From Fistulifera solaris (lineage: Eukaryota): a DNA stretch of 64,000 nt. The stretch spans positions 310,001 through 374,000 of the forward strand of contig AP026123.1 of assembly GCA_030295235.1 (NCBI GenBank), in the 5' to 3' direction. The notes beneath the pieces were generated by a model. It was not told where the DNA came from. It searched no databases and saw only the letters and a list, made by a program, of their open reading frames with translations. Both the position numbers and the translations under genes were made by a program. This document shows positions 2,971 through 59,629 of the stretch, piece after piece; within the stretch, counting starts at the first letter, position 1; the number at the start of each line of letters is the position of its first letter.

Positions 2971-3067
2971 TAATTGCTTGCAGACGAGGTCAAGGGTATT
3001 CGTACCAGCAGGGAAAGACTCGTTGTGAAGACTAGTCCTAAATGTTTAGTCCATTGAGTTGCCATTT

Positions 3068-4003
3068 GTCGTAGCTTTGTCACTTCTCTTGTTTCTGTCA
3101 ATGGGTAACTCTAAGCTGGCCGCATGTGATTCGTAATACATTGCGTAGGTCTAAATGAGGAGTTTATATACTCATAAAACCTGGAACTGTCTTTCTATTA
3201 ATTTCAATTCTCAAAACACTAGTTCCCGAATATCAGGAACGTCCACAGCATTTTGTATGATCCAAAACACCGATTCCAGAATAACTGGAACATCCACGAA
3301 ATGTCTGTTTTGACTCGAAGAAACAACTGGTCCAGAATTTCTGGACCAATCACACAGAATTTCTGGTTCACACAAACCACGAATTCCAGAATTTCTGGAA
3401 TTTGCTCAAACTGGCTGTATTTCACAAAACACTAGTTCCCGAATATCAGAACGTCCACAGCTTTTTTGTATGATCCAAAACACCGATTCCAGAATAATTG
3501 GAACGTCCACAAGTAGAGAAAGTAATACTAAAAGGACAAGTTTCAAAAAAAAAAAAAAAAAAAAAATGTCTGATTGATTCGAAGAAATAACAGCTCCAGA
3601 ATTTCTGGACCAGTCACACAGAATTTCTGGTTGACACAAAACCACGAATTCCAGAATTTCTGGCTGTATTTCTGAAAAACACCAGTTCCCGAATATCAGG
3701 AACGTCACAGCATTTTTGTATGATCCAAAACACCGATTCCAGAATAACTGGAACGTCCACAAAATATCTGTTTGACTCGAAGAAACAACTGGTCCAGAAT
3801 TTCTGGACCAGTCACACAGAATTTCTGGTTGACAATAAACCACGTATTCCAGAATTTCTGGAACGACGGTTGTCGTAGCTTTGCCACTTCTCTTTTTGTC
3901 AATAAATAGTTCTTAGCTGGCCTCGATTGTTTCATAACACATTGTGTAGGTTTACAAGAAGAATGAAGTACTCAAAATACCTGGAACTGTCTTTCTATCA
4001 ATA
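3068..4003. repeat. satellite island (three ~200-250-bp higher-order units, 3214-3865) between ~135-bp diverged direct repeats (3068-3203 and 3872-4003)
   Basis: AAAACAC(T/C)AGTTCCCGAATATCAG...TTCCAGAATTTCTGG is repeated from ~3214, ~3426 and ~3676. Both flanks read GTCGTAGCTTTG.CACTTCTCT...AGCTGGCC...ACCTGGAACTGTCTTTCTAT. Confidence 0.9.
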
Positions 4004-31378: not shown

Positions 31379-31999
31379 ATGAAAGCCAAAGATTTGAAAG
31401 TTCTTCGCAAAAAGTTCCTTCGGGTCGATCGCATTGGCAGTCCTCTCGACGATTCGAAAATAGCAGGTCAGTTAAACGACATTCTCAGCGGTCCGTGGAA
31501 ACTTAAGTACTTTGCGGGACCTTCGGCACCAATTGATAGTTTGCTCGATCTGTTCGAACGCAACATGGGCGATTTTTATCGCAAGAGTTCTTGGGGACTG
31601 GATTTGGTACAAAAAGCGGATGATCTAGCGCACCGAAGAGCACGGCATCTAGTGGTGTACGACGACAATGAGCACATGGCAGCCTATTGTCACTATCAAT
31701 ATGACTACGATGACGAGGAACATCCAGAACGCGTGGTCTTTTACGTTTATGAACTGCAAATTGAAGAAAAATATCAGCGCTTGGGTCTGGGGACCAAACT
31801 CATGAAATGTATGGAATATCTGGCTCAGTCAGCCGACCTGGACTCGGTGTTGCTGACTGTTTTCTTTGAGAATACATCAGCCATGGCGTTCTATCAGAAT
31901 TTGGGGTACGAAGTTGACGTTTCTAGTCCAAGCAAATTCAATCAACGAGAGGATTATGAGATTTTGTTCAAAAGGTCGATGCCTTATGATGCTGGCTAG
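31379..31999 (+). CDS. NAA40: N-alpha-acetyltransferase 40 (NatD), GNAT family
   Basis: Motifs LFERNMGDFYRKSSWG, VFYVYELQIEEKYQRLGLGTKLM, VLLTVFFENTSAMAFYQNLGYEVDVSSPS and YEILFK. Confidence 0.9.
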   Translation: MKAKDLKVLRKKFLRVDRIGSPLDDSKIAGQLNDILSGPWKLKYFAGPSAPIDSLLDLFERNMGDFYRKSSWGLDLVQKADDLAHRRARHLVVYDDNEHMAAYCHYQYDYDDEEHPERVVFYVYELQIEEKYQRLGLGTKLMKCMEYLAQSADLDSVLLTVFFENTSAMAFYQNLGYEVDVSSPSKFNQREDYEILFKRSMPYDAG

Positions 32000-32548
32000 C
32001 TAATAGAAGAATCAATGATGTTGTTTGTCATGAAATTGTGTTTATCTTTATGTTTGTCGGTCGCGCAGCTCGCCCCAGCGACGGTAATGATCTTTCAGCA
32101 AATGCTCTTGTTTCTCCAGGTAAAGCATAGAGTCATACTAAGCATCATGTTGAATGATACGTCGATCACTTGTATAACGGTGTTATGTTATTGTCAGTAA
32201 TCTGGTTACCAGGTACTTCGATACAGCAGGACGGCACCGCGAGTGTATTTCCATAGAAGTATATTTCATCATACAGAAATTCTAGAGGCGTATAAGTCCT
32301 ATGGACGTTCCAGAAATTCTGGAATTGGTGTCCTTAGAGTTGCGTACACGACGCACGACGCACCTTTTTGTGAAAAACATCCGTTATATGGGGCGATGCC
32401 GACGTCTGCGATGCGAACCGCCGATGCGATGAATGATGATTATTCTTTGATCGTTTGAAACGTTACAACCAGAAAAAGGATATTTGCTGCGTTGCGTCTT
32501 TTCCTCTGTGTTAACCAGCTCTGACTTACTTTTACAAAGTGCACAATT

Positions 32549-32788
32549 ATGACGAAATACGAAAACTACGATTGGAACGAGCTCCCCGGTGACGTGAAGA
32601 AAGCAGCGGAACAGCTGGGTTACGACAAACGAAAATGGGATAAGAGTATCAAAGTCCCGGTAGATGACAAAGATTGGAAGGATCTCACTGCGAAAGAACA
32701 GGAGGCGGCGTTGAAACTAGGCTATACACAGAAGACTTGGGACGAGGGTAGTGAAAGCGAGAGTGAAAGTGAGAGCGAGAGCGAATGA
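32549..32788 (+). CDS. small protein with two W.EL....K.AA..LGY....W repeats, paralog 1
   Basis: 79-aa ORF with an internal duplication, similar to 33631-33955. Ends in an SE-repeat tail. Confidence 0.85.
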   Translation: MTKYENYDWNELPGDVKKAAEQLGYDKRKWDKSIKVPVDDKDWKDLTAKEQEAALKLGYTQKTWDEGSESESESESESE

Positions 32789-33630
32789 TTGCTCCGTTCT
32801 GATTCCACGTTCGAGTTCATGGGATAATAGCTGATAGAAAGACTTTCGTAGACAGCTTAGACTCATATAAGAAGTAAGCAAATTCTTTAATTAAATTGAC
32901 AAAGTAATAATATTTGGCTTCAGCGTAACATAATTTCCATCAGTTTTTCATCCCTTTCTCTTGATGTTCTATCTCATGAATTCAGTAGCACACTTGTTGT
33001 TGTTCCAGCTACGAACCTTTCATTGAAGCCCGGCTGAAAGCCGAGGCATGGCTGCGTATTAGTTCCGAAAGGACTATTGCGTAGGACATGTTTGCATTCA
33101 AGTCAGAAATATCATAGTCTAGTATTTCCAAGCAAGGCTGCTATTGATCTCCAGTGCCCCAAGCAGTGCCTCAGTTTTTACGTTGAAAGTTGGAACTCTT
33201 TTTAGATCGTTGTCTTATCTTTCATTATATTAGTAAGTCCAAAGTGAAACCTCAACTTTTCCAAGACTGGAATTCAGTCACGAAAGGATTTTTCGTGCTA
33301 GACTGCTAGACAGCTTCACAATATCCTGTCAGTCGGCTAGTTTGGTAGGCCGAAATCCTTATTGTCACAATGCAGCTAACATCAGTGAGATTTTCGTTTC
33401 ACGCCTTTACTCTTTGCGGCGGAAAATGGTGCAGATTGTGCTCATCTGTAATTACTACAGGCATGAAGTGAAGATTACTTTTTTCACGACTGTATTCCAG
33501 TCACGAGACAGACATTTTGGCAATGCGATGAGCGCCGATGATCGATGATGCGAGCAATAATGCGCAATGCGACTCCTCGTTCATTGAAATCAAATTATTA
33601 TTGCGGAATAATAACAACAAGAAAATTAAA

Positions 33631-33955
33631 ATGACAAAATACGACGATTGCTCGTGGAAAGACCTTCCTGAAGACGCGAAGAAAGCGGCAAAGGTGCTCG
33701 GCTACAAGAAGAAAACGTGGGACGAAGATTTGGAGGTGGCTGTTGACGATAAGGAATGGTAAGGCACACACTGTAAAACAAGCATCATGGGGCGAAATAC
33801 TTCCAGCCTAAACATTTTACGATTCAATGTACGTTCGAAATCGAAGGGATGAATTGACCGATGAACAGCAAGAGGCTGCAAAGGTGCTAGGATATACAGA
33901 AGAATCTTGGAATGCAGATGACTCGGACTCGGAGGGATGCTGTGGCTGCTTTTAA
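33631..33955 (+). CDS. small protein with two W.EL....K.AA..LGY....W repeats, paralog 2 (one intron)
   Basis: Exons 33631-33758 and 33847-33955 (GT-AG) give ...DDKEW|DELTDEQQEAAKVLGYTEESWNADDSDSEGCCGCF*. Confidence 0.85.
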
Positions 33956-34659
33956 CCTCTTCATAAACGGATACTTTTACCCATCAGTTATATTTAGAAT
34001 GAACAATTGAATTTGGCGCAATTTAATCCACAGGCCGCTGTGCGATCACTCAGAATGCCGATTGCATTTGATGTTAAACAATAACTTAGTTTTAAATTCG
34101 CTACTTTCTCGATTGAGAGTTGACGATAGGGTTCACAGTTCACACCTGTTGGAGCTTTGAGTAGTCATAAATTGTTGAGTGTGGTCTTGTTTCCGAAAAG
34201 CGGCAACAATCGATTATACCGACGGAAGCGAAATTTGTGATGAGGAGTTGTGCAGATGTTTTATCTTGTTTCTGACATGTTAGCTCAATTGGCCAAAATG
34301 CGGCAGTATTTGTTAATCGTCCACAATATCTTGTTTGCTTTCTTGGTCTTTTTTTTTCTTTAATAAAAAATCTAGAAGCTCAAAAACTATGGTGCTAAGG
34401 TTTCCATAGATTATTGTCAACGGCAATAACAATAACGCTTCTAAGTTTTTAGTACCAGACCCCACTATCGTTTTTATAGTAAAACTGAAATAATAACGGT
34501 CTGACACTTTTTTGTATTTTTTTTACTCCGTATTTTCCTCTTTGAAATAAATGCGATGAACGCAACATCATCATTGCTTGTATTGTGCTTTGCTCTGCTT
34601 GTCAAAAGCACCGCTGACTCGGGCATTACAGAATCTTGATTGTGAAGCAAGGGATAGTA

Positions 34660-35690
34660 ATGATATCCAGCAACTGTCCGTACACGCAGAACTTTTTCGC
34701 CGACCCCGCAGAGAGCACCCGGTGTACTTTGTCGGTCTATGCAAAGGACGAAGCCCCCTGTAGCATGACATTCGAAGAATCTTTCAGTGATCCGTATCTT
34801 CCTCCAAGGACCTCTATCCCACGGGTACCACAAGAAAAGCAACGGTCGGCACTCTCTGCTTCTCCCTTTCCTTTCAATTTTGGAGAGTTTCTCGATAAAA
34901 CATTCGACGAATATGTTGCTCGTAGTTTGCACAAGAATTCCGTTCATACGCCAAGCACGGTAGAAGAAACAGTATCGTCTCATGCCTCTCTGTCTATCAC
35001 CTCATTTCCCGAGCCAGACGAGCTTCTTTCACGGGATTTTCCACACTTCAAGGAGGAAGTTATTGTCATTGGCAAGTATGATGCCTTCGATCGTGTCGAC
35101 GAGTACAAAAGGAAGCTGCTGCAGAAGCATTCATCGCCGTTAGTCTTGACGAATTTGGGACTGGCGTTGATGAATGTCGGGGATTTTTCTTCTGCGGTGG
35201 GAGCATTGGCGGAAGCGGCTCAATTTTGGAGAAAGCGACGGAAACCTGTTGCACTCGCGCGCGTCCTCGATCGACAAGGTGCCTGCTTGAATGCTTTGAA
35301 CATATTCGAGGTGGCGTTGGAATGTTTTTGCGAGGCGTTTTCACTTCGTCACAAACACTTGGGACCTTGGCACATAGATACGATAGACTCTCGCAAGTCG
35401 ATGGGGAATGCATACTTCGCTTTAGGATGCGCCTCCGAGGCGCGCAAATGCCTACTGGAAGTATTCAAAGTTCAAAAGCAGTCTTTCAGACGTATCATCT
35501 TTCGGTTGCGGTATCAGCACATGATTTGGCGAATGTGATGACGGCGGAAGGATTATTCGATGAGGCGAAAAAGTACTTTGGAATCGCCTGGAATATTTAT
35601 TCTCGCCTCAAGATCCCGCCCACAAATGCAGCCGTCGACCAGCTTTTAAAAGACATTGATCGTCTCACGAGTCTGGTTCGAATGAAGTGA
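34660..35690 (+). CDS. TPR (kinesin-light-chain-type) repeat protein
   Basis: Motifs LTNLGLALMNVGDFSSAV, LRHKHLGPWHIDTIDSRKSMGNAY and VAVSAHDLANVMTAEGLFDEA. Frameshift near 35480. Confidence 0.75.
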
Positions 35691-43637: not shown

Positions 43638-46600
43638 TTATGGCACCGTTTGCGATAGCACGGGGAACAACCGAGTAAAAGAACGTTGAGTCATTTTTCG
43701 GCCAGCATTCTGCTTGGAGCCGCCGCTTTTAAAATCCAAACGATTGTATTGCTCGATAAGCTCGCGTAACTTGCTGAGTTCTAACTCCAGAGCATCTGTA
43801 TTGGGCTCCTTAGAAACGCGAGCATCTGTACAGTGGGCGTTCATCAATTCATCTAGCGCAGTGACAGTTGGTTCTAAACTGTCAACTCGGAGTGATGGTG
43901 CTTCGTCAGTCATTGTCGTAAGAAAGTCGTTTGATTCATTGGTGGACGCGTAAAGTAATGCACGAAGAGCACTTGACGCAGCGTTGAGTGTACTGGTGGC
44001 TCTTCGCTGTGCGTCAAATGCTTTCGCCCGGTCTTGAATGCAATTTTCAATCGTTCTCACCATTTCATCGCACTCTAAGCGATCGCGAATCAATACAGAA
44101 AGAATGGTTATCAGATCACTTGTGCTCGTCTTGGGGAATCTAGTTAAAGTCGAAGCCGTGAGTGAGACGCGAACTCGATCGCACAAATCAAGCAGTTGGT
44201 CTGTTGATACTGGTTCAGAAGGCATGGATTCATCTGAGTCATGATCCAGCCCAACAGCACTTGCCGGGTCATCAACCAAATGTTTCTCAAAATTGCTCTG
44301 TCTTTCAAGGTCTTTCTCAATCAAATCGCGTCTTAGTGTAGCAAGTGTTGACAAAAGGACACATACATCAAGTTCCTCCTCTGTCGCAGACAGTTTATGC
44401 TCAAGATGTAATAATACTTGGACAACCCGATCAGTCATATGCAGTGCTAGCTGCGTCGATACTAGTCCATTCAGCTATCATCATGCAAAGAATATTGAGT
44501 TTATACGTCAGAGATTTTGCGATGATTTAAAGGTTTCAAGCTTACCAGTCGTATTGCTTTGGAAACTGACAAAGACTCCATTGAGTGAACCACGAAATGT
44601 GGCTTCACAGCCAGCCGCAGACGTCGATGGGCAGTAGGCCTATCAGAGTCAGCGTCACAAAAAGTTGCACCCAATTGACCCAAGGACCAAATCAGTCCTG
44701 ACATATCATCCAATTCCAAGTCCAACCAGGTATATCCAGACTCATCTGAAGGCATTTGATTAATGAAATGCAGAACCTTTCTCGCGAAATGATTGGTAAG
44801 AGATCGAGCGGCCGGTACTTCCATAGACAAAGCCGCTGTCTCGGTTAATCTTACAAGATCAGGCAACGGACACTCACGTAGCAGACGTCCATCGTGTGAC
44901 ACGAACAGACGAAGAAGAACTCGCGTCAAAACGCCGCTCTGAATGATTGCCTTATCGAATTGATGCGCAAGCTTACAAACTGCAGATGACAGTTTACAAA
45001 GACTTAAAGGATCAACCGATACATCTCGCAACAAAGGCAATCGATTTGAATGCTTTGCGTGCCCCGGTATGTCATGGGAGTCATCGATAGCATGTTCTAT
45101 TCGTTGGTCAAAGAAACGCAAAGCAAACTTAGATGTTCGAAGAAACGTGGTGACCTTGGATGGTTCGCGGTGATCGTGCATTTCTGTGCCATCGTGACTG
45201 ATTTCTCTCATGCTTTCCCAATCTAGTAGACTCGTTTCAATCGTAGCCAAGAGTTTACCAAGAGCGGCAGGTACCCCAGGCCAACCAAAGGACACGCTAG
45301 TGTCTGTCAAACTCAAAAATGCCCATACAACCCTAGCCTAGTAGCTAGATTGTAAGATTCCGCAAATAGCATCAAAAGTCGTTCACCTCCTGACTTACCA
45401 TATCTTCGCTTCGAAAAAGAGCCAGATGCGAAGCAGCTATGAGCAAGGCGCGATAGGTCAAAGAAACAATTGAAACTGACGTCCATCTAACGGTACCCTG
45501 ATCCAAGAGAATCGTACTCAAAGACCAAACAAGACGACCCAATTCATGCGGAGTGAACTGTATCAACAATGACGGTGAATCATTAAAAATTCGTCCCCGC
45601 TTGTGATTTCTATAGCGCGGTCGGCTATCCATTTCACAACAACATCGGAGACATCAACTTGTACGGCGAAGCTGCTTTTCGCTAACGCCCAACATAAATT
45701 CGTCAGGTCAGCCCCCGAAAGCCCATTCATAGAACCAACACCTAAGAGATTAAGCATATTTGATACGTCATGGACAACAGCTTCGCGGTGCGACCCGTCT
45801 AGTTCTGTAACAGCCCAAGCCAAGGAACACAAGTCACGTGAAGACAAACAAGAAACGAGGGGCTGGTTGTCTCCAACATCAGAAATGTCAAGTGAAAGCT
45901 GCCGCGAATTTTCGATCGCCTCTGATGCATCGCCAAGAACTTCCACCTTATACTCTTCCGCCTGCGTCGCGATCATCTCGATTCCGTCATCCTCTAGCCT
46001 GCCCGTTTTGACTAAATCGATGGCGTCAGCTACAATAAGTGGGATTTTGTCATGCTCGACTAAGTCCGGCACTTCTGTGTTGTCAATATCAGCCGCATCA
46101 TTCCGCATTTCTTCAAGACCAGTAAACTCGATTCCATCAGTCGCGTCACTCAAATTTTTAAAAGCACCAGTCTCTTCGCTAGTGATACTGTCGCCATTTC
46201 GAATCAATGACTCTTTCAAATTGTCGGACTCGGACCGTTCCTCCACTTCAGTATCGTCGTCAGATACGGCGTGATCTAAAGCGTTTGATTCTCCTGAGAC
46301 TTTTACTTCTTTATCTAAATTTCTGATACCGTCGTGAAGATATTCTCTCGACACAGTCTCTTCCCCCCTCTTGATGATTTCTTAAGCGACATAATTCAAC
46401 TTGTAAAACGCCAGCCATTCTCTGCAATGCCTTTTCACAGTACTCATCAGTTGCAGAAGATGTGTTGTCCATTTTTCTCTAATTAACGCGATGGCCCACA
46501 AAGAATCGATCAGTTCATTGGGCGACAGCCAATCCAGTAAACACGTTTTCTCCCGTGCGGTAGATGTCTCCAGAGTTTCAGCTACTGGAACGGATGAACG

Positions 46601-47548
46601 ATCTGTTTCAAAGACCACGTGATCTGCGGATGGTATTTCAACATCTGAGCTTGCACTATCTGTCGCCAACTCCGACTGTGCCAGTCGCTCCACCACGTCG
46701 TTTGTACCTAGTTCGATATTCGTATCCATTTCAATATCACTCAAAATCTCTTCTTGAGCTGTTTTTCGCGTGATAAAAGGATCTTGAACCAGTAGCGAAG
46801 TACACAGATCAACAAGCGACGATATATTTTGGCCGGTACAGGCCTTGACACAGGCAAAAGTCCAGAGAACGGAGACAGCATCTTCTGCGAGCTCTTCCGA
46901 AAATAGCTCGATGCCCTTTTCAACGGTCTCAACCCCATTTGTAAGCATGTCTCCCCTTTTCAATAGCTCTTGTCGATGTTCGAGCACATGAGCTACTCGC
47001 GACACGAGTGCTTTCAGCGCTGCCCTCGAATTGTCGTCACTACTTTTCTGATGAGACGACAAAACAGCGAGACCCCACGCCGCACGACACGCATCCCTTA
47101 TTGATAGTCCCTCCGTGTATGTATCTTTGTGATCGACGCCACACATGACGCATTCGACGAGCTGTTCGAAACGACGATCCTTCAGAATATCGTCTACGAA
47201 CTCCTCTTGTAATTCGCAGATCCGCCCCAATGTAGCAATGACGCACGCGGCTAAACCACAATCCATATCGGTGCGGGAGGCTCGTATTCGAAGGGATATA
47301 TCCGGAGAATGTCGAATGGCGGGTATTTTGGGAGCCAGGTAATGCAGTAACTTGAGTGGGTTGTTGTTTGGGTATGTGATGATCATTTCACGAAATTCTT
47401 GTGATTCAGGATCATTGTCTATACCCGATCGTGTAATGAGATCATGGATAATATCGGACGCTCGACGTTGCTTGTCGAGAAAAGGAATTCCTCGCGCGAA
47501 CACGCTCACAGCGAATAGCCAAATAAATGAGAGAATGAAACGGAGCAT
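43638..47548 (-). CDS. large signal-peptide protein with OPR/FAST-like helical repeats (candidate plastid RNA-binding factor)
   Basis: Repeats LSPNELIDSLWAIA, LSSRDLCSLAWAVTEL, LSGADLTNLCWALAK, FTPHELGRLVWSLST, FRSEDMARVVWAFLSL and LELDDMSGLIWSLGQLG. Introns 45338-45398 and 44475-44545. Several frameshifts. Confidence 0.65.
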
Positions 47549-48139
47549 GGTAATATGCGGCAGAGAAGAGACAGCTCACTTTTGCCTGTCATTTTCCTTT
47601 TTCTTCTACAAGGATGAAACGAAATGCCTCTCGGTGAAGATTAATTCGGTAAGGTGAAAAGAGAAAGACTTCAGACCATTATAACAAACATTTGTAACTG
47701 CAACGCATTGTCTGGAGGCGATTTTTGTATTTTGCAAAACAATTCATTCCAGAAATTCTGGATTTGGTGTATACATCATACAGAAATTCTGCTTTGTTTG
47801 TTCAGATTTTCTGGACACGTTAATCTAACTGACTGAAATCATTCAGAAATTCTGACTACTGTCCAAAATTTAGATCGGGACTGGATTCCAATTGAGTCGC
47901 TCAGAAAAGTAATTACACTTTACGACACAATAAACCACTACGATGTCACACGAACACTAAATGTGTACACTTTAGAGGATATTAAGTCGTCGCACTAAAG
48001 AACCCTTATGGCATGACTGAGGAGTCACAACGCGTCAGAACGCACAACAAACAACAAAACGCGTTGACAGTTGACATGCATCCCATTATCGTTTACCGTG
48101 AGATCTTTTAGAAACAAACAATATCAACACAACAATACT

Positions 48140-48751: not shown

Positions 48752-49006
48752 AACACAAGCACTTCAGATGTGCTATATCAGCTAGTAGATATCATATATA
48801 AAGATGTATCGATCTTGCGTGACAGCTATACCTTTAGGATCGAAATAGATTACGTAAGCAAACAGAACAAGATACATTATAAGTTTGTCTCTTGTCAAAC
48901 AAATATAAAGCACGTAGAAAAATGTTCGACAAATCGTTTCCAAAGAGGTTCTATTCATTATATAATTATTATTTAGCCTCGGCTTCCGATTGCAAGATAG
49001 CGCCCC

Positions 49007-51260
49007 TTAGTCTTTGTGAATCGGACACTTCCCTCGGCTGTCCACGTTTCCATCTTGTGAGTCGAAAGGCCTTCCGTTAGCATTGAATCCACGTTTCAGG
49101 TGCTGCATCTCCCACCAGCTTGTCGTCTTTTCTACACTTGTGGAGCTTTCACTTACGGACCGTGGTTTCATTTGCAATCCGTTCATTGTATGAATAGTAG
49201 CACCGGTTTTCATTCCAACATCTTCCGCAGGAATCGCGAGCTCAAAGTCCATTTTCTTCAACAAAACACTTAGCGTAACAGCTGCTTCCATCATTGCAAA
49301 TTGATCTCCAACACATTTTCGAGCGCCTCCTCCGAATGGTAAAAACGCAAAGTCAGCTGCTTGTTCATTCGGATACAAACCAGTTACTTTGTCCGGGTTG
49401 TAACCATCCCAGCCCCGGACAGAAGGATTCTGAAAAGGGCGATCCCATCGCGTGGGATCGAAACGCTCGGGCTCATCCCAAAGATCAGGAGAGCGATGCA
49501 AATTCCATGTACTGATGAACATATCCGTCCCACGGAGCACCTTAATACCTGAAGTGAGATCAGAGCCTCCCGACGGTAAATTATCTGCTTCGCGTGCCCG
49601 TCGAATTAAAACCGGAGGCTCCGGATACAAGCGGAGCGATTCAATCAAACAAAAACGTAATTTTTTCATGGCCACAATGTCATCGTAATCCGGACGATCT
49701 TTGTCCTTGAGGACGGTCCGCACTTCTTTTGAATTTCCTCCAGCAGAGCAGGCGGTCCGCGCGCTAATTCAAACAAAGTCCACGTGAGCATTGCAGCAGT
49801 GGTCTCGTGACCGGCTTCACATGAAATGAATCAAAAGCAACATGTAAGTGTTGTTTGCTTCGCAACAAGAGGTTCCACTTCCAAAATCATCACTTACCAA
49901 TCAACATAGTCATCAAGTCATCGCGAAGCGCTTTGCTCGACAAGTCCTCCCCGCGCATGTCAACTAAAAATCGTAAAAGACTCGGATCATCAGCATTGTC
50001 TCGTTCTTCCAGTTCCTCTACAGTTGCCTCACTTCGCGTTTCCACAGCACGATTGATCAAATCGGCCAAAATATCGTCTAACATGGTCATATCACGTCGG
50101 AATTCGACCTGTCCTCCCATCCATTGATCGGCGTAGGGCAAGTTCCAGTAAGGAATGAAACTACTGGAGCGGTGTTCGGCCTCACGCAAAACACGGTATA
50201 CAGCTTTGATAATTGGGCTTTCTTTTGTGACACTTCCAAAGTCGTAATTAAAGACGGCCTTGCCGATAATGTCCAAAGTCACACTGCAAAAGCGCTCCTC
50301 CATGTCCACAACATTGCCTTCTTTTGACTGCAAATCTTTCAAAAGAATGTCTGCCCGATCACCAAACATTCCAATCATTCGATTCAGCCATTTCTTGTGA
50401 AAGCCAGGAACAAGAGCACGACGTCGAACTTTCCATACGGCAGGGTTGGCGGGAATGAGGCCTTGACCCATGATAGGTTCAAGGATTTCGGCCAACATGC
50501 CTTTGCAATATTGTGTGACGGGGACATCGCGCAAGACATGTCTCGCCATGACCGGATCACTCACGACAAGAAACGCCTTCGGACCGAACGCTAAAGTAAA
50601 GATGGGGCCATATTCTTGGTAGTATTTCGCCAGGAGAAGAAACAATGGACCTCCAGCCAGTGTCTGCAGATCACCGCCAAGTACGCCTTTGATAAAGGAT
50701 AGAAATGAACCTTCGTATTTCTGGATGACAGCCGTCGGTACCGCCGCCATCCCCAGTGCTGGCCCTAGACCCACACTCGTTAACATTTGCACTGCAAACA
50801 ATTTCGCCACATCCAACGCCCCAACGGGCCGTGGTCCTTCATTGGGCGATGGTCTTGACCTCGAAACGAGAAAGTCAAACATACTCGGTTGTCTCACCCA
50901 ACTGCCATCATCACGCATGCGCAAACCGGCGAAATAACGACGAGCCTTTTCAATTTCCCAGTCAAAGCCAGATGCCGTCCGTTCGTCCCATTGTTGTAGA
51001 AGTTGAGCTTCGTACGTCGACGCGTCGAGTACTTCATTCCGACTGACCTCGCCTTTAAGACGCAATCGATTCGGAATTCGATCTTCGAATTGTCGCACAT
51101 CACTCTCTTCAACTGTTACTGTGCTCGTATCATTTTCTACCGAGGAACTAACAAAGCATTGCGTAGCAAACCGTGTCGTCGTTCTGCCGATCGTAAACGC
51201 CTCGGAGGAGTAGCAGGATAATGCCAACCAAAGGAGAGATTTTTGCCGTATTATCCTCAT
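49007..51260 (-). CDS. CYP97B: cytochrome P450 CYP97B-like (carotenoid hydroxylase family), plastid-targeted
   Basis: Motifs GPLFLLL, FGPKAFLVVSDPVMARHVLR, YCKGMLAEILEPIMGQGLIPA, LIAGHETTA, ESLRLYPEPP and FLPFGGGARKCVGDQFA. Intron 49815-49897. Frameshift near 49730. Signal ends SEA-F. Confidence 0.93.
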
Positions 51261-51674
51261 TTTTGCAACTCGTTGTATTCTCTTTTTATGCGACGATTTA
51301 CGATTGAAGATTGTCTTTTGGAAGAATCTTTTTTATCGTTCAAGACATCGGCCACGGTTCGGTGTTCGGTTTTTTCCTTCTTCCGATGCCGTCTCGAAGA
51401 GGTTGGAGGATGCTTGAACTTTCTAGCTGCATGACGCGTGTGCGGCGCTTGTGCGACGTGCGAGGCGTTTTGTGATGGGGGAGGAGAGAGAGTTGAATTT
51501 CAAAGCCGTCGCGCATCAACGAGAAGAAAACGTCACGCGCGCCCATCCTGCAGCTGAAACCGGTACTGGACTGCGTAAACTACACAATATCGTATATTGT
51601 GGCAGGCGCCCGTGAGAGGCGGAAAAGTTAAGGTTAAGGACATGAGAAAGAATACTACGTGACTCCGGAGTAGC

Positions 51675-54600
51675 CCGAATTCTGGAATCAGTGTCTAACG
51701 ACATAAGCTTAACAGAGATTCTGTATGGATTTTAAAAATTGTTTGCGGTCAAACAAAGACTCCTCCTCTGTTGTCGTTCCAGAAATTCTGGAATCGGATC
51801 AAACAGAGATTCTGTGTTCGATCAAGAAATTCTGGTCTAGTTGTTTTGAGTAATACAGAAATTCTGTATTAGTTCCAGAAATTCTGGAATCGGCAATTTG
51901 GGTCATACGAAAGAATGTGGTCGTTCCAGAAATTCTCAAATCGGTAATGTGGATAAAACAGAGATTCTGTGGTCGTTCCAGAAATTCTGGACTAGTTGTT
52001 GTGGGTCAAACATAGATTCTTTGGTCGTTCCAGAAATTCTGGACTAGTTGTTGTGGGTCAAACATAGATTCTTTGGTCGTTCCAGAAATTCTGGAATCAG
52101 TGTTTTTGGTCAAACAGAGATTCTGTAGTCTTTCCAGAAATTCTGGAATAATCGGTAATTTGGATCAAACAGACATTCTGTGGTCGTTCCAGAAATTCTG
52201 GACTAGTTGTTTTGAGTAGTACAGAAACTCTGTGGTCGCTCCAGAAATTCTGGAATCGGTAATTGAGTCATACGAAAGTCTGTGGTCGTTCCAGAAATTC
52301 TGGAATAGGTAATTTGCATAAAACAGAGATTCTGTGGCCGTTCCAGAAATTCTTGACTAGTTGTTTTGGTCAAAAGAGATTCTGTGGTCGTTCCAGAATT
52401 TCTGGAATCGGTGCTTTGGGTCAAACAGAGATTCTGTAGTTGTTCCAGAAATTTTGGAATAATCGGTAATTTGGATCAAACAGAGATTCTGTGGTCATTC
52501 CAGAAATTCTGGACTAGTTGGTTTGAGTAATACAGAGATTCTGTGGTCGTTCCAGAAATTCTGGAATCGGTGCTTTGGGTCAAACAGAGATTCTGTAGTC
52601 GTTCCAGAAATTCTGGAATCATTCCAGAAATTCTGGACTAGTTGTTTTGAGTAATACAGAGATTCTGTGGTCGTTCCAGAAATTCTGGAATCAGTAATTT
52701 GGGTCATACGAAAGTCCTTGGAGGTTCCAGAAATTCAGGATCGTTGTTTTTGGTCAAACATGGATTCTGTGCCCGTTCCGGAAGTTCGGGAATCGGTGAT
52801 TTGGCTCAAACAGAATTTCTTTGGTCGTTCCAGACAGTCTGGAAATTGTGTTTTGTAACGATCAGAGATCCGGTGGTCGTTCCAGAAATTCTAGAATCGG
52901 TAATTAATTTGGATCAAACAGAGCTGTGGTCGTTCCAGAAATTCTGGACTAGTTGTTTTGAGTAATACAGAGATTCTGTGGTCATTCCAGAAATTCTGGA
53001 ATCGGTAATTTGGGTCATACGAAAGTCTGTGGAGGTTCCAGAAATTCAGGAATCGCTGTTTTGGGTCAAATATAGATTCTGTGCCCGTTCCGGAAGTTCA
53101 GGAATCGGTGATTTGGATCAAACAGAATTTCTTTGGTCGTTCCAGACAGTCTGGAAATTGTGTTTAGGGACGATCAGAGATTCGGTGGTTCCAGAAATTC
53201 TAGAATAGGTAATTTGGATCATACGAAAGTTTGTGGTCGTTCCAGAAATTGTGGAATCGGTAAATGGGTTAAACATTGATTCTGTGGTCGTTCCAGAAAT
53301 TCTGGAATTGGTAACTTGTATCAAACATAATTTGTTTGGTCGTCCCAGAAATTCTGGTAAGTGTGTTTAGGAACAAACAGAGATTCATTGGTCGTTCCAG
53401 AATTTCAGGAATGTTGTTTTGGGGGCAAACAGAGATTCTGTGACTGTTCCAGAAATCAGGAATTGTTGTATTCCGTCGTACAAAAGTTTGTGGTGCGCCG
53501 GGATTCTGGAATCGGTAACTTGGATCAAACAGAATTTTTTTGGTCGTCCCAGAAATTCTGGAAAGTGTCTTTTGGAACAAACAGAGGTTCAGTGGTCGTT
53601 CCAGAAATTCTGGGATCGGTGATTTGGAACAAACAGAAATTCTTTTGTCATTCCAGAAATTCTGGAAAGTGTGTTTTGGATCAAACAGACAATTCTCTCG
53701 TTCCAGAAATTCGGGAAATGTTGTATTGGGTCCAAAAGAAATTCTGTAGTCGTTCCAGAAGTTCTGGAATCGGTAATTTGAGTGAAACAGAGATTCTGTG
53801 GTCGTTTCAGAAATAATAGAATCTATATATTTTTGACCAAACAGAGATGCGGTGGTTGTTTCAGAAATTCTGGAATGGGTGTTTTGAGGTCGAGCAGAGA
53901 TTCTATGCCCGTTCCAGAAATTCCGGAAAGTGTGTTTTGGAACAAACAGAGATTCATTGGTCGTTCAAGAAATTCTGGGATTGAAGCTTCGAGTCAAACA
54001 GCGATTCTGTGGTCGTTCCAGAAATTCAGGAATAATTGTTTCGGGTCAAATAGAGATTTCTGTGCCCGTTCCAGATATTCGGGAACTATTGTATTGGGTC
54101 AAACAGAGTTTCTGTCGTCGTTCTAGAATTTCTGAAATCTGTATTTTGGGACAAACAGAGGTTTTGTGGTCGTCCCAGAAATTCTGGATTCGGTAATTTG
54201 GGTCAAACAGAGATTCTGTAGTCGTTCCAGATATCCGGAATCAGTTTTTGGATCGTACATAGATTCTGTGCCCGTTCCAGAAATTCTGGAATGGTTGTAT
54301 TGGGTCATACGAAAGTCTGTGGTCGTTTCAAAAATTCTGGAATCTGTGGTCGTTCCAGAAAATCTGGAACTGTGCTCGTTCCAGAAATTCTGCACTAGTT
54401 GTTTTGGGTCAAACATAGATTCTGTGGTAGTTCCAGAAATTCTGGAATCGGTGATTTGTATCAAACAGAAAGATTCTGTAGTCGTTCCAGATATTCTGGA
54501 ATCGTCGTTTGGATCGTACATAGATCCTGTGCCCGTTCCAGAAACTAATTTGGAACAAACATAGATACTCTGTGGTCGTTCCCGAAATTCTGGAATCGGT

Positions 54601-55870
54601 GATATGGATGAAACAGAGATTCTGTAGTCGTTCCAAATATTCTGGAATCAGTTTTTTGGATTATACATAGATTCTGCGCCAGTTACAGATATTCTGGAAT
54701 GGCTGTATTGGATCATAGGAAAGTCTGTGTCCGTTTCAGAAAATTTGGAATATCTTTTGGCACAAACCGAGATTCGGTGGTCGTTCCAGAAATTCCGGAA
54801 TGGATAATTTTTGGTCGCATAGACACTCTGTGGTCTTTCCAGAAATTCCGGAATTTTATAATTTGGGTCAAATAGAGATTCTGTTGTCGTTCTAAAAATT
54901 CTGGATTCGGTGATTTGGACAAAACAGAATACTTTTGTCTTTCCAGAAATTCTGGAAAGTGTGTTTTAGATCTAACAGACATTCTGCCCGTTCCAGAAAT
55001 TCGGGAATTGTTGTATTGGGTCAAACAGAGATTCTGTAGTCGTTTTAGAAATAATAGAATCTATATTTTGGGACAAACAGAGATGCGGTGGTTGTTCCAG
55101 AAGTTCTGGAATGGGTGTTTTTGGGTCGAGCAGAGATTCTATGCCCGTTCCAGAAATTCCGGAAAGTTTTTGGAACAAACAGAGATTCAGTGGTCGTTCA
55201 AGAAATTCTGGGATTGAAGCTTGAGTCGAACAGCGATTCTGTGGTCGTTCCAGAAATTCAGGAATAATTGTTTTGGGTCAAACAGAGATTCTGTGCCCGT
55301 TCCAGATATTCGGGAACTGTTGTATTGGGTCAAACAGAGATTCTGTCATCGTTCTAGAATTTCTGGAATCTGTATTTTGGTTTTGTGGTCGTCCCAGAAA
55401 TTCTGGAATCGGTAATTTGGGTCAAACAGAGATTCTGTAGTCGTTCCAAATATCTGGAATCACTTTTTTGGATTGTATATAGATTCTGTGCTCGTTCCAG
55501 AAATTCTGGAATGGTTGTATTGGGTTCCAGATATTGTGGAATCGTTGTTTTGCGACATACAGAGATTCTTTGGTCGTTCCAGATATTCTGGAATCGCTGA
55601 TTTGTATCAAACATAGACTAGATTCTGTGCACGTTCCAGAAATTCTGGAATCTATATTTTGGCACAAACAGAGATTCGGTGGTCGTTCCAGAAATTCTGG
55701 AAATGGTTATTTGGGTCGAATAGAGACTCTGTGGTTGTTCCGAAAATTCTGAAATGGGTGTTTTGGGTCAAACAGAGATTCTGTAGTCGTTCCAGATATC
55801 TGGAATCAGTTGTTTGGATCATACATAAATTCTGTGCCCGTTCCAGAAATTCTGGAATGGTTGTATTGTT
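51675..55870. repeat. ~53-bp palindromic satellite array (roughly 75-80 monomers) with higher-order repeats
   Basis: Consensus CAAACAGAGATTCTGTGGTCGTTCCAGAAATTCTGGAATCGGTAATTTGGGT repeats continuously. The monomer count is estimated from array length divided by period. Confidence 0.97.
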
Positions 55871-57063
55871 TGTAGTGAACATTCATTGTTCGCAGAACAG
55901 ACGCTAAGAATTTATTCTGAAGTAATGAACACCATTATTTGTTCATAGACAGTCTCTACTAACAGCCACTAAATTCTCCGTGCGTAGTGAACAGTGAACA
56001 TTCAAGCTTGTCATAAAAGACCACTTGTTCTCAGACAGTCTACAGTCTAGCATTAATTGAATTTCCAAGATTTATCTACAAGCTTGTTCTGAAAGACTTG
56101 ATTCTTGAACAATGAACACCACTTGTTCATAGACAGGTGTTACCAGCAACAAATATATTAGCCCACGGGTCACAATTTTGGTGGGTCAAGTCACGCTTTA
56201 ACAACGGATATTTATTCGCCAAAATTGGCTAGAGGAATAAGGCTTTTTTGTAGGAACAAACGGTCAAGAAGCCGGCCGTCCATTTGACTCCAACGGAATA
56301 AATAAGCTCACTTTATAAGTGATACTGCATGCTTTCTTTCGACAAAAACAAATGATTTTTCATACATCTTAGTATTTCATTGATATTTTGAAATTTTTGC
56401 AACAATAACCTATAGTAGTAGTATCAATGACCTGTGGCGAGTCATTTAACATACATTCGACCAAAGTAAAGTCCATGGATTCTCAAAAATCCCACCCCCA
56501 CACCCCCTTGTCACAGCGAAAGTAAAACTTTTCGGACTGCGAGTACCACTGTGAATGTTAGGAGGTACAATAGAAAACATGACTAAACAGGACGGACTGT
56601 ATTTCAGTCACGAATAAACTTTAGGTGTGAGTTATATGATTCATTACTCACTACAGTCGATCCATTCGCACGCCTAGTAAGCTTCACCCGTCAAGTGATA
56701 GATAAGAATCTGATTGAACAGTATTTGAATTTTACTCGACGTTTCTTTACGGCGAAAAGCGATGCCGATGATGCTTTACTATATTTACTATAGCCTTAAT
56801 GTGTATGATCAACTTACCAAGACTGCATATAGTTTGCAGTCATGAATGAATAATCACCAGTCACCAGCTTCTTCCGTTCGATAAGCCTTAACCTTAGACG
56901 TCCGATGAAAACGGTACTGAGATTCTACTTCGGACTGTACAGTCAAGCGTCGCAAACGTCGACACTTCACGCACTCCCTTCGTGCTCGACCACGGCGGCA
57001 ATAACGCGCATTCCTCTCTTTGTGCTTCTTTTCCAAAGGTGCAATAAGAACTCACAATAAACC

Positions 57064-59629
57064 ATGTCTACGATCGAACATTTAGACGAAAGTAACGTTT
57101 GGTCGATATCGGTCAAAACATTCGGACCCGAAGTCCAGGCGAGCGGCGAAACAACCTCAAGGGAACGGGAGTTTGTGGTAGACGTGTCACCGGACGATGA
57201 CTTGCGTTCTTTGTATCACAAAATCGAAACTGTTACAGGCCTCAAAGCCTCGCAGCAACGACTTATTTACCGCGGTAGACTAATTGAAGGAATCAATGAA
57301 TCGCAACCGGAAGTGATTGTAGAATCATTCGAGGATGGGAAACCGAAAATGGATAAGGAACTTAAAATTAAAGACATTGTCGGTTTACAAGATGGGCATA
57401 CGATTCATTTGGTGCCGAAGCGCAATAACGGAGCATCAGAAAACACCAACACCTCAGATAGATCAAGTGATGAAGGCGCTAATAATGAAACGAATACGAG
57501 CGGTTCTTCTGCTTTTTTGAGTTCACTTTTGGGAACGAGTTCGGGAACAGAAGAGGCGGGGACTCCCGGTAGCGCAGCTCGACGTACGACTCGATCGACA
57601 AGGCTTGGATCTCGTCGACGAGCTCATTATCGGCTATCCTCTGAGGATCTTGAAATACCGGATGCGGGCTCCATGGAAGCCGTTCGACAGGGTTTGCTCA
57701 CCATGCACACGATTCTACCTCCAGCACTGCGGAATTTCTCTGCCGAGCAACAAACACAATCACCCTTAGAGGTCAACAGACGCTGGTACATTGGTCAGTG
57801 GATCGATTGTCGGGATACTGTTAATCATTGGCTAGAAGCTACAATCTCGGATATTGTTCTCCCGGATGAAATTCTTCCTCCACGCGAGGTAACGTCGTCG
57901 CGTTCAAAGCGTGGGCGTGCAGCTTTGTTGAATCCGACAAATGACCCTGTTGTCACCGGTACAGATTTGGAAGGGCGTCGTCGCTTGCTTCTTGAACCGT
58001 GTTTGGATGATGACAGCGATGACGAGGGCGGCGAGCTGGCAGGATTTCGTAGACGGGACAATACGGACGTTCAATTACTGTTGGTGCATTACAATGGCTG
58101 GCCGCATCGATGGGACGAATGGATTCGTAGCGACTCGGAGCGTATTCGTCCGTTTCGAGTTCGTACACGACACCCGGCTTCTTCTTCCACCGCTCTCCCT
58201 ACTCCGCAATCGGCCTTTGCTGACTCCCCAGATACGTTTATTCGACATTCCGATGAACAGCTCGATCGACGAGCATTGTTGCCCGAGTTAAGCCGCATGA
58301 TGGATACGATCAATACTCTACTTGCTTCTACTTCCCGTTCTGTTCATCAATTGCAGGAAGACGACGTTGAGCGTGAAACTGGGAAGATCCGCGCTTGCCG
58401 TGGTCGACTGCAGCGAACTGGAATAGGGATGAAGGAATTGCGGAAACTGGACAGCAAGCCACGCGTCGACAGCTGGAAGCTCTTTCACCTCTCATGGATC
58501 GTTTGGGAGGCTTTTAGTTGACGCGGCTCCTCATGTGGCGTCTCTTGCGGCGTCAATGGCGGTCGAGGAAACAAACGTCGAGGACGCCACGGCTGCGTCG
58601 GCGTCGATCGGCGATAGGACCAGTACACTAGGAGGATTCTTTTCCCTTTTGAATCATGATTATCGCCGCTCTGGTGCATCTAGCGAAGAAGCCACCGCGA
58701 TGTCTGAAGAAGATAGCGGCAGATCATTGGCACTCGCTACCCGACGCCTGCCGTCTCCTTCTGATGCTGGCAGTCCCATGGCTTTGTCGACTACTGAAGA
58801 GAACAATTCCGTTTCAAACGTAACCCAGACAACGACAGCACCGGAACCATGCCCGTCAGTTCACATTGATCCAGATTTTACCGACTTTGCTACAGGGGTA
58901 GTAAATACAACTCGGGGTGAGGTCAGAAGTGGACCACGCAGCAGACGTGGTCAAGGCGATGAATTTGCGGGTTTGCTAGGTGCCTATCTGGCAGCGGCTA
59001 GTTTGGCTGGTGCGATTGGAGAAGTTGACGTGGATGGAAATGACAATTTGACTGGACTAGCGCGTCTTTTGCGCGACAGAGGCACGGGCACTGGTGGCAT
59101 TGACATTCACATACACGCAGTTGTCACAGGGCCCGGAGGAGCAGGTGCAAACGGGGGCGTGAATGTGCTGGGACCTATTGGCGGTATAACTATGACAAAT
59201 ACCACCGATAGGGCGGTTTCGGAACCGAATGACAATACAGCAACAACTTTTGGGAATCTGTTTTCTTCGAGTCGCGAACGTCGCAACAATCAAAGTACAA
59301 ATCAAGCGACTATTCCTACAATGCAATATGACGAGGAAGACATGGGCATCTTCGAAGAGCTGTATTCTGAAACACCCGAACCGATTGATCCCAGTAGCTT
59401 GAATCCCTCGGAAGAGTCATCCGGAGGGGATCCTGGTGGGAACAGATGGGAAGGATCCGACGTGAATAGTCGAGCGTCTACAGCTGTGCGGCAAAACTCG
59501 AATCGAAATGCTTCACGTGCCCAGGGTGAGCAGTCGGCGTCAGAATCGCGTTCGCACCCGAGCAATGAGCAGCGACGCAGGCGCGGTTGGTTGAACCGAT
59601 TGTTTTCCCGTCGCAGCACAGGCCGATAG
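57064..59629 (+). CDS. ubiquitin-like domain plus chromo/Tudor-knot-like domain protein (BAG6-like architecture)
   Basis: UBL motif (LYHKIETVTGLKASQQRLIYRGRL...GHTIHLV), then WYIGQWIDCRDTVNHWLEATI...LLVHYNGWPHRWDEWI and IDIHIHA. Frameshifts near 58390-58520. Confidence 0.7.

Follow-up and report, generated by a model that had tools for sequence, protein, structure and literature searches.

The repetitive locus at positions 51776 to 55868 of the 64-kb window, i.e., the whole stretch of DNA that was analysed, probably belongs to a satellite (minisatellite) family with a 52-bp unit that is dispersed in the intergenic DNA of Fistulifera solaris, and is probably not a centromere. Approximately 80 monomers of 52 bp follow each other head to tail on the plus strand, far above chance expectation, and since the repeat family is present at several places in the genome, a plain satellite is the most likely explanation and is favoured over a centromere. 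This dispersed 52-bp family is previously undescribed. The 17-bp palindrome of its monomer was not found in the searched literature, where shorter strings matched only papers that were unrelated as judged by their titles. Judged by title, no paper about a Fistulifera satellite was found among those on the centromeres of F. solaris or among the matches listed for repetitive and transposable DNA of the genus.

The first-pass annotation had described a tandem array of ~53-bp monomers. The tandem array stood, but the period had to be corrected to 52 bp, because exactly this distance separates neighbouring cores in 40 of the 83 intervals (47 to 58 bp in 74 of the 83), as determined from 84 matches of a fuzzy core search, one of which was false. 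Tandem Repeats Finder also reported a period of 52 for positions 51799 to 55868 in three rows (15.8, 53.3, and 24.9 copies), together with a weaker 311-bp period (13.1 copies, 72% matches). The regular array extends from 51776, with the end of its final core at 55857. It is preceded by degenerate monomer copies at positions 51670 to 51775 (plus strand), which were recognised by their sequence and a fuzzy core match at 51670 and are situated on the upstream side of a P450 gene, about 420 to 520 bp from its start codon. The monomers have a mean identity of 0.715, and short units of 20 to 30 bp at 52601, 54325, 54352, and 55494 represent register slips. The main array has a GC content of 40%, with more G than C on the plus strand. 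It carries no gene annotation, its longest open reading frame (ORF; 151 aa) had no match in the protein search, the best Rfam match at a permissive threshold reached 28.9 bits compared to a gathering score of 86, and the tRNA search returned no tRNA in the 64-kb window.

Each monomer is composed of an 18-bp core, i.e., a G followed by the 17-bp palindrome TTCCAGAA-A-TTCTGGAA, a variable G/T-rich linker, and a second, weaker palindrome, ACAGA-GAT-TCTGT. Two related inverted repeats per monomer had been proposed, and both are indeed present: they have CAGA-R-ATTCTG in common, and the mutual alignment of the two 26-bp monomer halves beats 485 of 500 shuffles. Perfect copies of the 17-mer were counted 19 times in the window, all but one of them (18) inside the main array, and ACAGAGATTCTGT occurs 20 times, always inside the main array. 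With up to two mismatches, the 17-mer has 133 matches on both strands, compared to 0.03 expected from shuffles. The 18-bp core is about twofold better conserved than the rest of the monomer (0.90 versus 0.78), as counted over monomers with shared ancestry. This result is independent of the register in which the monomers are cut (0.904 versus 0.778 in a rotated register) and was also obtained after dropping one copy of each duplicated block (0.908 versus 0.780); the core ranks second among the 52 circular 18-nt blocks. Selection for a function might explain why the core is better kept, in which case a purely neutral reading would overlook it, but a mutation or conversion bias might equally be the cause. 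Because of this difference in conservation, protein binding to the core is plausible. The palindrome may be recognised by a dimeric DNA-binding protein, in which case every array would offer a dense series of candidate recognition sites.

The higher-order structure of the main array, for which blocks of recurring diagnostic variants had been noted, is local. A periodicity of six monomers (~311 bp) is restricted to the left third; the corresponding zone from 51820 to 53210 (plus strand), with about four to five units, was defined by the identity at lag 6 together with block alignments and the lags of nearest neighbours. The identity at lag 6 amounts to 0.806 (22 pairs) compared to 0.72 to 0.76 at other lags, and the zone contains the pairs 52061-52260/52372-52571 (92%) and 52621-52900/52932-53210 (94%). 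No lag peak was detected in the middle third of the array by the lag identity analysis. An internal duplication of 12 to 13 monomers, the copies of which are neighbours at lag 24, is present in two copies only, 53624 to 54330 and 54914 to 55525 (both on the plus strand), with 563 of 607 aligned bases (93%) matching and with internal deletions in the second copy relative to the first. The two block pairs named in the first-pass annotation were confirmed with two copies each: 53800-54330 and 55040-55520 are identical at 458 of 480 aligned bases (95%), and 52655-52900 and 52945-53210 at 228 of 243 (94%). Old and diverged monomers with a mean identity of 0.715 thus stand beside lag-6 and lag-24 blocks with an identity of 92 to 95%, which argues for block duplication by unequal exchange. 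The array would accordingly have grown and been remodelled by unequal exchange or replication slippage, with single monomers and blocks of 6 to ~13 monomers as the presumed units, and its persistence would require no cellular function.

The family was found at four places in the 64-kb window, in both orientations and in 5'-5', 3'-3', downstream, and promoter-proximal intergenic positions. A second array of ~12 monomers, which was detected by BLAST, nhmmer, and a period-51 row of Tandem Repeats Finder, is located at 3208 to 3867 on the minus strand, i.e., in the opposite orientation to the main array, with which it shares 72 to 80% identity over 130 to 320 bases (BLAST). It consists of a ~4-monomer block repeated about three times (94% identity between the internal copies 3213-3400 and 3676-3863) and sits between the 3' ends of two convergent genes (ORFs). 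The second array is bracketed by a ~137-bp direct repeat with its left copy at 3066 to 3202 (plus strand) and its right copy at 3870 to 4002 (79% identity over 138 bases). At 32261 to 32331 (plus strand; nhmmer E = 1.7e-6 for 32307 to 32331), ~300 bp downstream of the ORF 31379-31999, about one monomer is present as a solo relic, the core of which is perfect. A further relic of about two monomers at 47722 to 47854 (plus strand), with nhmmer matches on both strands of one core (E = 1.9e-8 for plus and 3.4e-4 for minus), lies on the upstream side of the minus-strand ORF 46382-47548, ~200 bp from its start codon (47548). The perfect cores of the solo copies are partly an ascertainment effect, because these copies were found via the core.

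Contigs of two sequencing runs (X1 and X2) suggest further loci of the family beyond the window. The mean summed depth of contigs fitting the array was ~234 compared to 32 to 35 for the flanks in X1 and ~163 compared to 14 to 23 in X2, values that are contig depths and not copy numbers. A proportion of 13% (X1) and 11% (X2) of the contigs runs on into unlike sequence, and the loose contig ends in both runs are monomer variants and unlike flanks that are absent from the main locus. The earlier suggestion of a mobile or dispersed satellite is well supported by these foreign variants and flanks, the second array, and the two short relics, with the number, size, and chromosomal spread of the arrays being estimated from the 64-kb window and summed contig depths only. 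At least 119 metagenome loci match the 18-mer. They were rejected as family members and are regarded as chance matches, because none among the matches listed has more than ~30 nt in common with a 309-base stretch of the array; two cores at a distance of 30 to 40 nt had no match in the metagenome scan. One metagenome locus (L034) is an unrelated 67-bp tandem repeat that bears the same palindrome.

The divergent genes previously noted on either side of the main array were confirmed, both being transcribed away from it. On the left, the first exon of a CYP97-type (carotenoid-hydroxylase-like) cytochrome P450 extends from 51260 to 49890 on the minus strand (Pfam p450, E = 4.6e-25); it is 100% identical to a 723-aa protein labelled Fistulifera solaris, and its relatives are named CYP97B3 or carotenoid hydroxylase. 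On the right, a gene for a ubiquitin-domain protein is located on the plus strand from 57064 to 58521 (Pfam ubiquitin, E = 5.8e-10). F. solaris is an allodiploid diatom. The right edge of the array is adjoined by a non-coding segment (55870 to 56612) with decayed TGAACA...TGTTCA palindromes and direct repeats, which is repeated elsewhere in the genome. Its summed contig depth in X1 was ~135 compared to 16 to 48 further right, and small indels distinguish the contigs of high depth from the window sequence.

The dispersal of the family might also result from transposition, with the array as an internal or trailing part of a MITE-, Helitron-, or CACTA-like transposable element that is non-autonomous, and with the palindrome as a transposase site. 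Copies in both orientations, including those of only one to two monomers, the roughly fourfold repetition of the 740 bp at the right edge with small indels in run X1, the ~137-bp direct repeats around the second array, and a palindromic, sequence-conserved core that fits a protein recognition site are all compatible with such an element. We nevertheless consider it unlikely, as the main array has no flanking inverted repeats, and neither flanking terminal repeats nor target duplications that might explain the dispersal were found; at the solo copies, no target-site duplications were recognised by eye. The right-flank segment has no other copy in the window, including the surroundings of the second array, and no transposase-like ORF is present in the vicinity. 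All ORFs fully contained in this segment are shorter than 70 aa, and its left edge is overrun by a few bases by two array ORFs (96 and 76 aa). An assembly artefact, i.e., a wrong length or internal order of the array caused, e.g., by collapsed or scrambled repeats, is very unlikely. It is true that no contig of any run spans the array and that many contig joints skip between monomers, and of the contig that extends to the right junction, only 30 letters fall within the array. However, diverged stretches specific to this locus were reproduced almost exactly in independent runs: 54428 to 54985 in X2 with one difference and two gaps, 54611 to 55103 in X1, and the left edge (51673 to 51833) without any difference by a 161-letter contig of a further run (X6).

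The proposal that the array is centromere-like was not supported, and a role as a centromere or replication-origin element of the chromosome appears extremely unlikely, even though its tandem organisation and its local higher-order repeats would fit such a role. According to the available text of a study on diatom centromeres (10.1101/2021.11.10.468027), the putative centromeres of F. solaris contain three ARS-like motifs, have a GC content of 36 to 42%, and the best ones are 1.4 to 2 kb in size. The non-coding array with its GC content of 40% falls in this range and is of similar size, and the same text reports no centromere for chromosome 5, a number that is also carried by the label of a flanking protein. 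In contrast to these centromeres, all of which are described there as devoid of highly repeated elements, the array is highly repeated, and the three published centromere/ARS motifs had no match in the whole window with up to three mismatches each. Centromeres of Phaeodactylum tricornutum are low-GC regions, and the criterion for diatoms given in the available text (N_box32) is a clustering of 100-bp windows with a GC content of at most 32% within 3 kb (10.1101/2021.11.10.468027). Corresponding counts in the six 3-kb frames starting between 50501 and 53001 amounted to 2 to 16 of 2901 sliding windows, with a maximum for the 64-kb window of 269 at 32001 to 35000; the lowest GC content of a 100-bp stretch in the array is 30%. 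Instead of one principal array per chromosome, two arrays at a distance of 48 kb, two relics, and contigs with other flanks in two runs, which indicate further loci, were found. Moreover, a conserved gene has its start codon at a distance of about 500 bp from the beginning of the array. The observations do not support the main array as a centromere.

The palindromes had also been proposed to extrude as hairpins or cruciforms, which would act via DNA shape. Folding of single-stranded DNA resulted in -6.3 kcal/mol for the core (z = -4.4) and -8 kcal/mol for the whole monomer (z = -3.05), but the stem of the core comprises only 7 bp with a 3-nt loop, and arms as short as 7 bp rarely extrude in duplex DNA. 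The second palindrome (-2.7 kcal/mol) folds no better than shuffles, 19 of 200 of which equalled it. Three compensatory changes were counted in eight arm pairs of 71 cores compared to 1.27 expected, a number that was reached by 260 of 2000 shuffles, and they are opposed by 82 one-sided, symmetry-breaking changes and four double changes that are non-compensatory. Since compensatory changes in the arms are thus no more frequent than chance allows, the formation of hairpins or cruciforms is not supported and must be regarded as highly improbable.

The resemblance of the core to heat-shock elements (HSEs) was corroborated in its non-canonical form. TTCnnGAA occurs 105 times in the array, which corresponds to 25.6 per kb, whereas its density elsewhere in the window is 0.69 per kb. 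Pairs of TTCnnGAA units with a distance of 1 bp were counted 40 times in the window, and 37 of these are located within 51675 to 55870. The core consists of four TTC/GAA units with a spacing of 5-4-5 bp, and GAAnTTC and TTCnGAA are present 63 and 6 times in the array, respectively. A canonical HSE is made up of three or more nGAAn units that directly follow each other as inverted repeats with 5-bp spacing, and no such three-unit element, neither TTCnnGAAnnTTC nor GAAnnTTCnnGAA, was detected in the array. The core might nonetheless be bound by a diatom HSF paralogue, and the arrays might serve as stress enhancers, transcribed satellites, or a factor sink, which on the basis of the sequence seems rather improbable. 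The high density of TTCnnGAA and GAAnTTC and the conservation of the core are consistent with such a platform, and so is the role of HSFs as the most abundant diatom transcription factor family with 69 genes in P. tricornutum, as stated in the accessible part of the source (PMC11986044). Like diatoms, oomycetes are stramenopiles, and their HSFs recognised TTC/GAA arrays in protein-binding microarrays when the gap measured 0, 1, or 2 nt; these variable gaps are served by different paralogues of Phytophthora infestans, according to the available text (PMC11267843). A 5-4-5 spacing is therefore possible in stramenopiles. However, the measured proteins are from an oomycete and not from a diatom, and the site with a 1-nt gap in the available text is TTCnGAA (PMC11267843), which is rare in the array, where GAAnTTC prevails. 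Furthermore, the family copies have no consistent position relative to promoters, and the sole diatom HSF with genome-wide binding data (PtHSF2, CUT&Tag) has a telomere-like top motif that is uninformative for the palindrome.

A bolder version, in which the 17-bp palindrome would be the site of an HSF paralogue with an evolved 5-4-5 spacing and the satellite would spread clusters of this site as enhancer, transcript, or reservoir arrays, is a long shot. If true, the array in front of the carotenoid-hydroxylase-type P450 would be a diatom counterpart of known HSF-bound repeats, i.e., of the Helitron-borne HSEs of Caenorhabditis, which are dispersed near genes (PMC6927752), or of the human satellite III with its HSF1-bound tandem arrays (PMC3704536, PMC2241877), as far as described in the accessible parts of these reports. 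All of them are repeated DNA, and the array is likewise packed with TTC/GAA units, but it lacks the canonical three-unit HSE and has a central gap of 1 nt, and its likeness is one of sequence.

For the design of diatom episomes, these results qualify the 52-bp array as a poor centromere candidate. Classical satellites are generally considered scarce in diatom genomes, the centromeres of which are described as short, low-GC, and non-repetitive. Against this background, a strongly conserved palindrome in a dispersed satellite provides a useful landmark for genome assembly and for comparing both subgenomes of F. solaris. The array is also a ready test substrate for DNA-binding specificity in the large HSF family of diatoms, which is to our knowledge almost wholly uncharacterised. 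If neutral, the array is one more species-specific satellite.

Eukaryotic satellites and minisatellites that contain a conserved 'box' and local higher-order repeats, for which the alpha-satellite is the textbook case, differ from the diatom family in several respects. The array comprises only ~4 kb and is embedded in gene-dense euchromatin, where the nearest gene start is about 500 bp away, its monomers are only 71% alike, and its higher-order structure is local and mostly made up of two-copy blocks. Moreover, the family is present at several nearby loci and not as one homogenised block per chromosome. With the same class of satellites, the family has in common the head-to-tail monomers, multi-monomer blocks that are more alike than neighbouring monomers, a monomer that is variable except for one well-conserved short motif, and enlargement by unequal exchange. 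Among diatoms, the double-hairpin elements in the mitochondrion of Thalassiosira pseudonana form a 4.8-kb array of 75-bp units, the truncated units of which are attributed to slipped-strand mispairing in the available text of a preprint. Compared by description, both systems are kilobase-scale arrays of short units with two hairpin-capable palindromes each, but the T. pseudonana array belongs to the mitochondrial genome and consists of nearly identical copies, whereas the F. solaris array is diverged and nuclear, surrounded by introns and nuclear genes on a 331-kb contig.

The best-supported reading of the array is that of an undescribed, dispersed 52-bp satellite family, which would have expanded at this locus through unequal exchange, both of monomers and of blocks of several monomers. 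For 51799-55868, Tandem Repeats Finder returned three overlapping rows with a period of 52 bp (15.8, 53.3, and 24.9 copies) and a weaker second period of 311 bp (13.1 copies, 72% matches). A core-anchored search yielded 84 matches, one of them false, and core-to-core spacing was exactly 52 bp in 40 of 83 intervals and 47 to 58 bp in 74 of 83, which together with the period confirms the tandem satellite of the first-pass annotation and corrects its ~53-bp unit to 52 bp. Degenerate monomer copies are present from ~51670, the regular array starts at 51776, its final core ends at 55857, and a few short units of 20 to 30 bp are signs of register slips. The exact 17-mer TTCCAGAAATTCTGGAA, not found in the literature searched, has 19 occurrences in the window; 18 of these lie within the main array, which also holds all 20 copies of ACAGAGATTCTGT. 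Allowing ≤2 mismatches brings the 17-mer to 133 matches over the two strands, versus 0.03 expected. The GC content of the array is 40% versus 46% for the window, and its plus strand has more G than C and more T than A. Both palindromes of the monomer contain CAGA-R-ATTCTG, the mutual alignment of the 26-bp halves of the consensus monomer beats 485 of 500 shuffles, and the two palindromes are, judged by sequence, related. Searches for Rfam families and tRNAs were negative. Plus-strand frames of the monomer consensus are all devoid of stop triplets, hence the ORFs of up to 151 amino acids across 51776-55868; the protein collection yielded no relatives of the longest one, which is not annotated.

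Pairwise identity among 74 monomers averages 0.715. Both block pairs proposed earlier are real, i.e., 53800-54330 versus 55040-55520 (458 of 480 aligned bases identical) and 52655-52900 versus 52945-53210 (228/243); the former has a longer form (53624-54330 versus 54914-55525, 563/607 identical), and a third pair comprises 52061-52260 and 52372-52571 (183/200). The higher-order repeats claimed with them hold up locally, in the left third, where lag-6 identity is 0.806 versus 0.72 to 0.76 at other lags, but not array-wide, as the 6-monomer periodicity is absent from the middle third and faint in the right third (0.734). The main array thus combines higher-order structure of local extent with a single large duplication present in two copies, and is not a homogenized higher-order array. 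Since block copies diverge by 5 to 8% and monomers by ~29%, it is old and is not undergoing rapid homogenization.

Further copies were sought in the window with a profile of the monomers, solo copies being detected via the core. A second array of ~12 monomers in opposite orientation (3208-3867, profile matches 3210-3864) is 72 to 80% identical to the main array over 130 to 320 bases and has its own block structure of ~4 monomers per block; a ~50-bp insertion with a terminal run of ~22 A (3513-3567) sits between two of its 4-monomer blocks. One solo monomer (32261-32331) and a short copy of ~2 monomers (47722-47854) complete the set. Of the four sites, one occupies a 5'-5' gap, one a 3'-3' gap, one follows an ORF downstream, and one precedes a start codon by ~200 bp; no consistent promoter association was found among them. 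The family may have originated from a transposable element; inverted repeats flanking the main array were not found, and direct repeats of ~137 bp lie on both sides of the second array. Other repeats in the window include a 426-bp unit detected by Tandem Repeats Finder (358-1293, 2.2 copies, 94% identity) upstream of ORF 1432-2970, and 24-, 27-, and 57-bp short tandem repeats (5598-5764) within the minus-strand ORF 5204-6091, located in the most GC-rich kilobase (57%) and probably representing a repetitive protein segment.

Contigs of four sequencing runs were placed on positions 49000-58900. Summed over the contigs that fit the array, depth averaged ~234 (run X1) and ~163 (X2), compared with 32 to 35 and 14 to 23 for the flanks, a measure that differs from copy number and serves only as a sign of additional loci. 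Placed contigs continued into unlike sequence in 13% (X1) and 11% (X2) of cases, and the loose ends listed carried monomer variants absent from the main-array locus; these contigs are evidence for additional loci of the family. A gross assembly artefact is argued against because independent runs reproduce locus-specific stretches (1 difference and 2 gaps for 54428-54985 in X2, 0 differences for 51673-51833 in X6), although no contig spans the array. Among the matches listed, metagenome scans gave only chance matches to the core. In an unrelated metagenome contig (L034, 1-360), the same palindrome (GTTCCAGAATTTCTGGAAC) forms part of the 67-bp unit of a tandem repeat that is otherwise unlike the diatom monomer.

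The flanking genes are divergent, as previously noted, with a P450 ORF on the minus strand (49890-51260), whose start codon lies ~500 bp from the array, and a ubiquitin-domain gene on the plus strand (57064-58521). The P450 ORF is 100% identical to a 723-amino-acid protein labelled Fistulifera solaris (331-kb contig), and CYP97B3 or carotenoid hydroxylase are the names given to its relatives; an additional P450 with 90% identity (P0002) is among the protein matches. Over 49103-58176, X1 and X2 contain equal-length contig pairs, one near-identical to the window and the other ~7 to 9% different (e.g., 33/424, 41/469, and 25/343 letters), a pattern that fits two diverged homoeologous copies. The 740 bp that follow the array on its right side (55870-56612) are also multi-copy in X1, where small indels set the copies apart from the window, and contain no complete ORF of ≥70 amino acids; the segment 55951-56612 is likewise multi-copy in X1. 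At 55874-56160, just beyond the right end of the array, a different unit bearing TGAACA...TGTTCA palindromes forms a decayed repeat with spacings of ~86 to 190 bp.

The first-pass annotation had also proposed a centromere-like or cruciform-forming element. In the preprint on the chromosome-scale F. solaris assembly (10.1101/2021.11.10.468027), putative centromeres are called as low-GC regions (36 to 42%) on eight chromosome pairs, chromosome 5 not among them, none has highly repeated elements, and three consensus motifs are tied to episome replication. These motifs are absent from the whole window at ≤3 mismatches, the count of low-GC windows, the calling criterion given there, is near zero in the main array, and two arrays lie 48 kb apart with more elsewhere, so that a centromere reading fails the motif, low-GC, and array-number tests run on the sequence. 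The lowest-GC stretch of the window, 32001-35000, is ORF-poor and holds the solo monomer (at 32308); 269 of its 2,901 sliding 100-bp windows have ≤32% GC, and its lowest 500-bp value is 34.6% (at 34061), yet the stretch remains far short of the low-GC peaks that have been described at the centromeres of diatoms. The cruciform reading failed the folding and compensatory-change tests. As single-stranded DNA, the core forms a 7-bp stem (-6.3 kcal/mol), and the second palindrome, ACAGA-GAT-TCTGT, folds no better than shuffles (-2.7 kcal/mol, matched by 19 of 200). When 8 arm pairs were compared in 71 cores, 479 cells were consensus, 82 one-sided, 4 double non-compensatory, and 3 compensatory versus 1.27 expected, and 260 of 2,000 shuffles reached 3. 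The palindrome is preserved as sequence, not as pairing.

The 18-bp core is the best-conserved part of the monomer (0.92 in core-anchored monomers). Its conservation is 0.904 versus 0.778 with the register shifted by 26 bp and 0.908 versus 0.780 with one copy per duplicated block dropped, and it ranks second among 52 circular 18-nt blocks, counts that are not independent because monomers share ancestry; constraint is suggested, not proven. This conserved palindromic core may be a protein-binding site. The main array contains 105 TTCnnGAA sites (25.6 per kb versus 0.69 elsewhere) and 63 GAAnTTC sites, and no three-unit canonical HSE. HSFs are the largest transcription factor family in diatoms (PMC11986044), and those of oomycetes bind TTC/GAA arrays in which the gap is 0, 1, or 2 nt (PMC11267843). 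However, the unit order of the reported oomycete 1-nt-gap site is opposite to that of the array (PMC11267843), and the only diatom HSF with genome-wide data gave a telomere-like motif; HSF binding is therefore a tentative lead. HSF-bound repeats have precedents (PMC6927752, PMC3704536, and PMC2241877).
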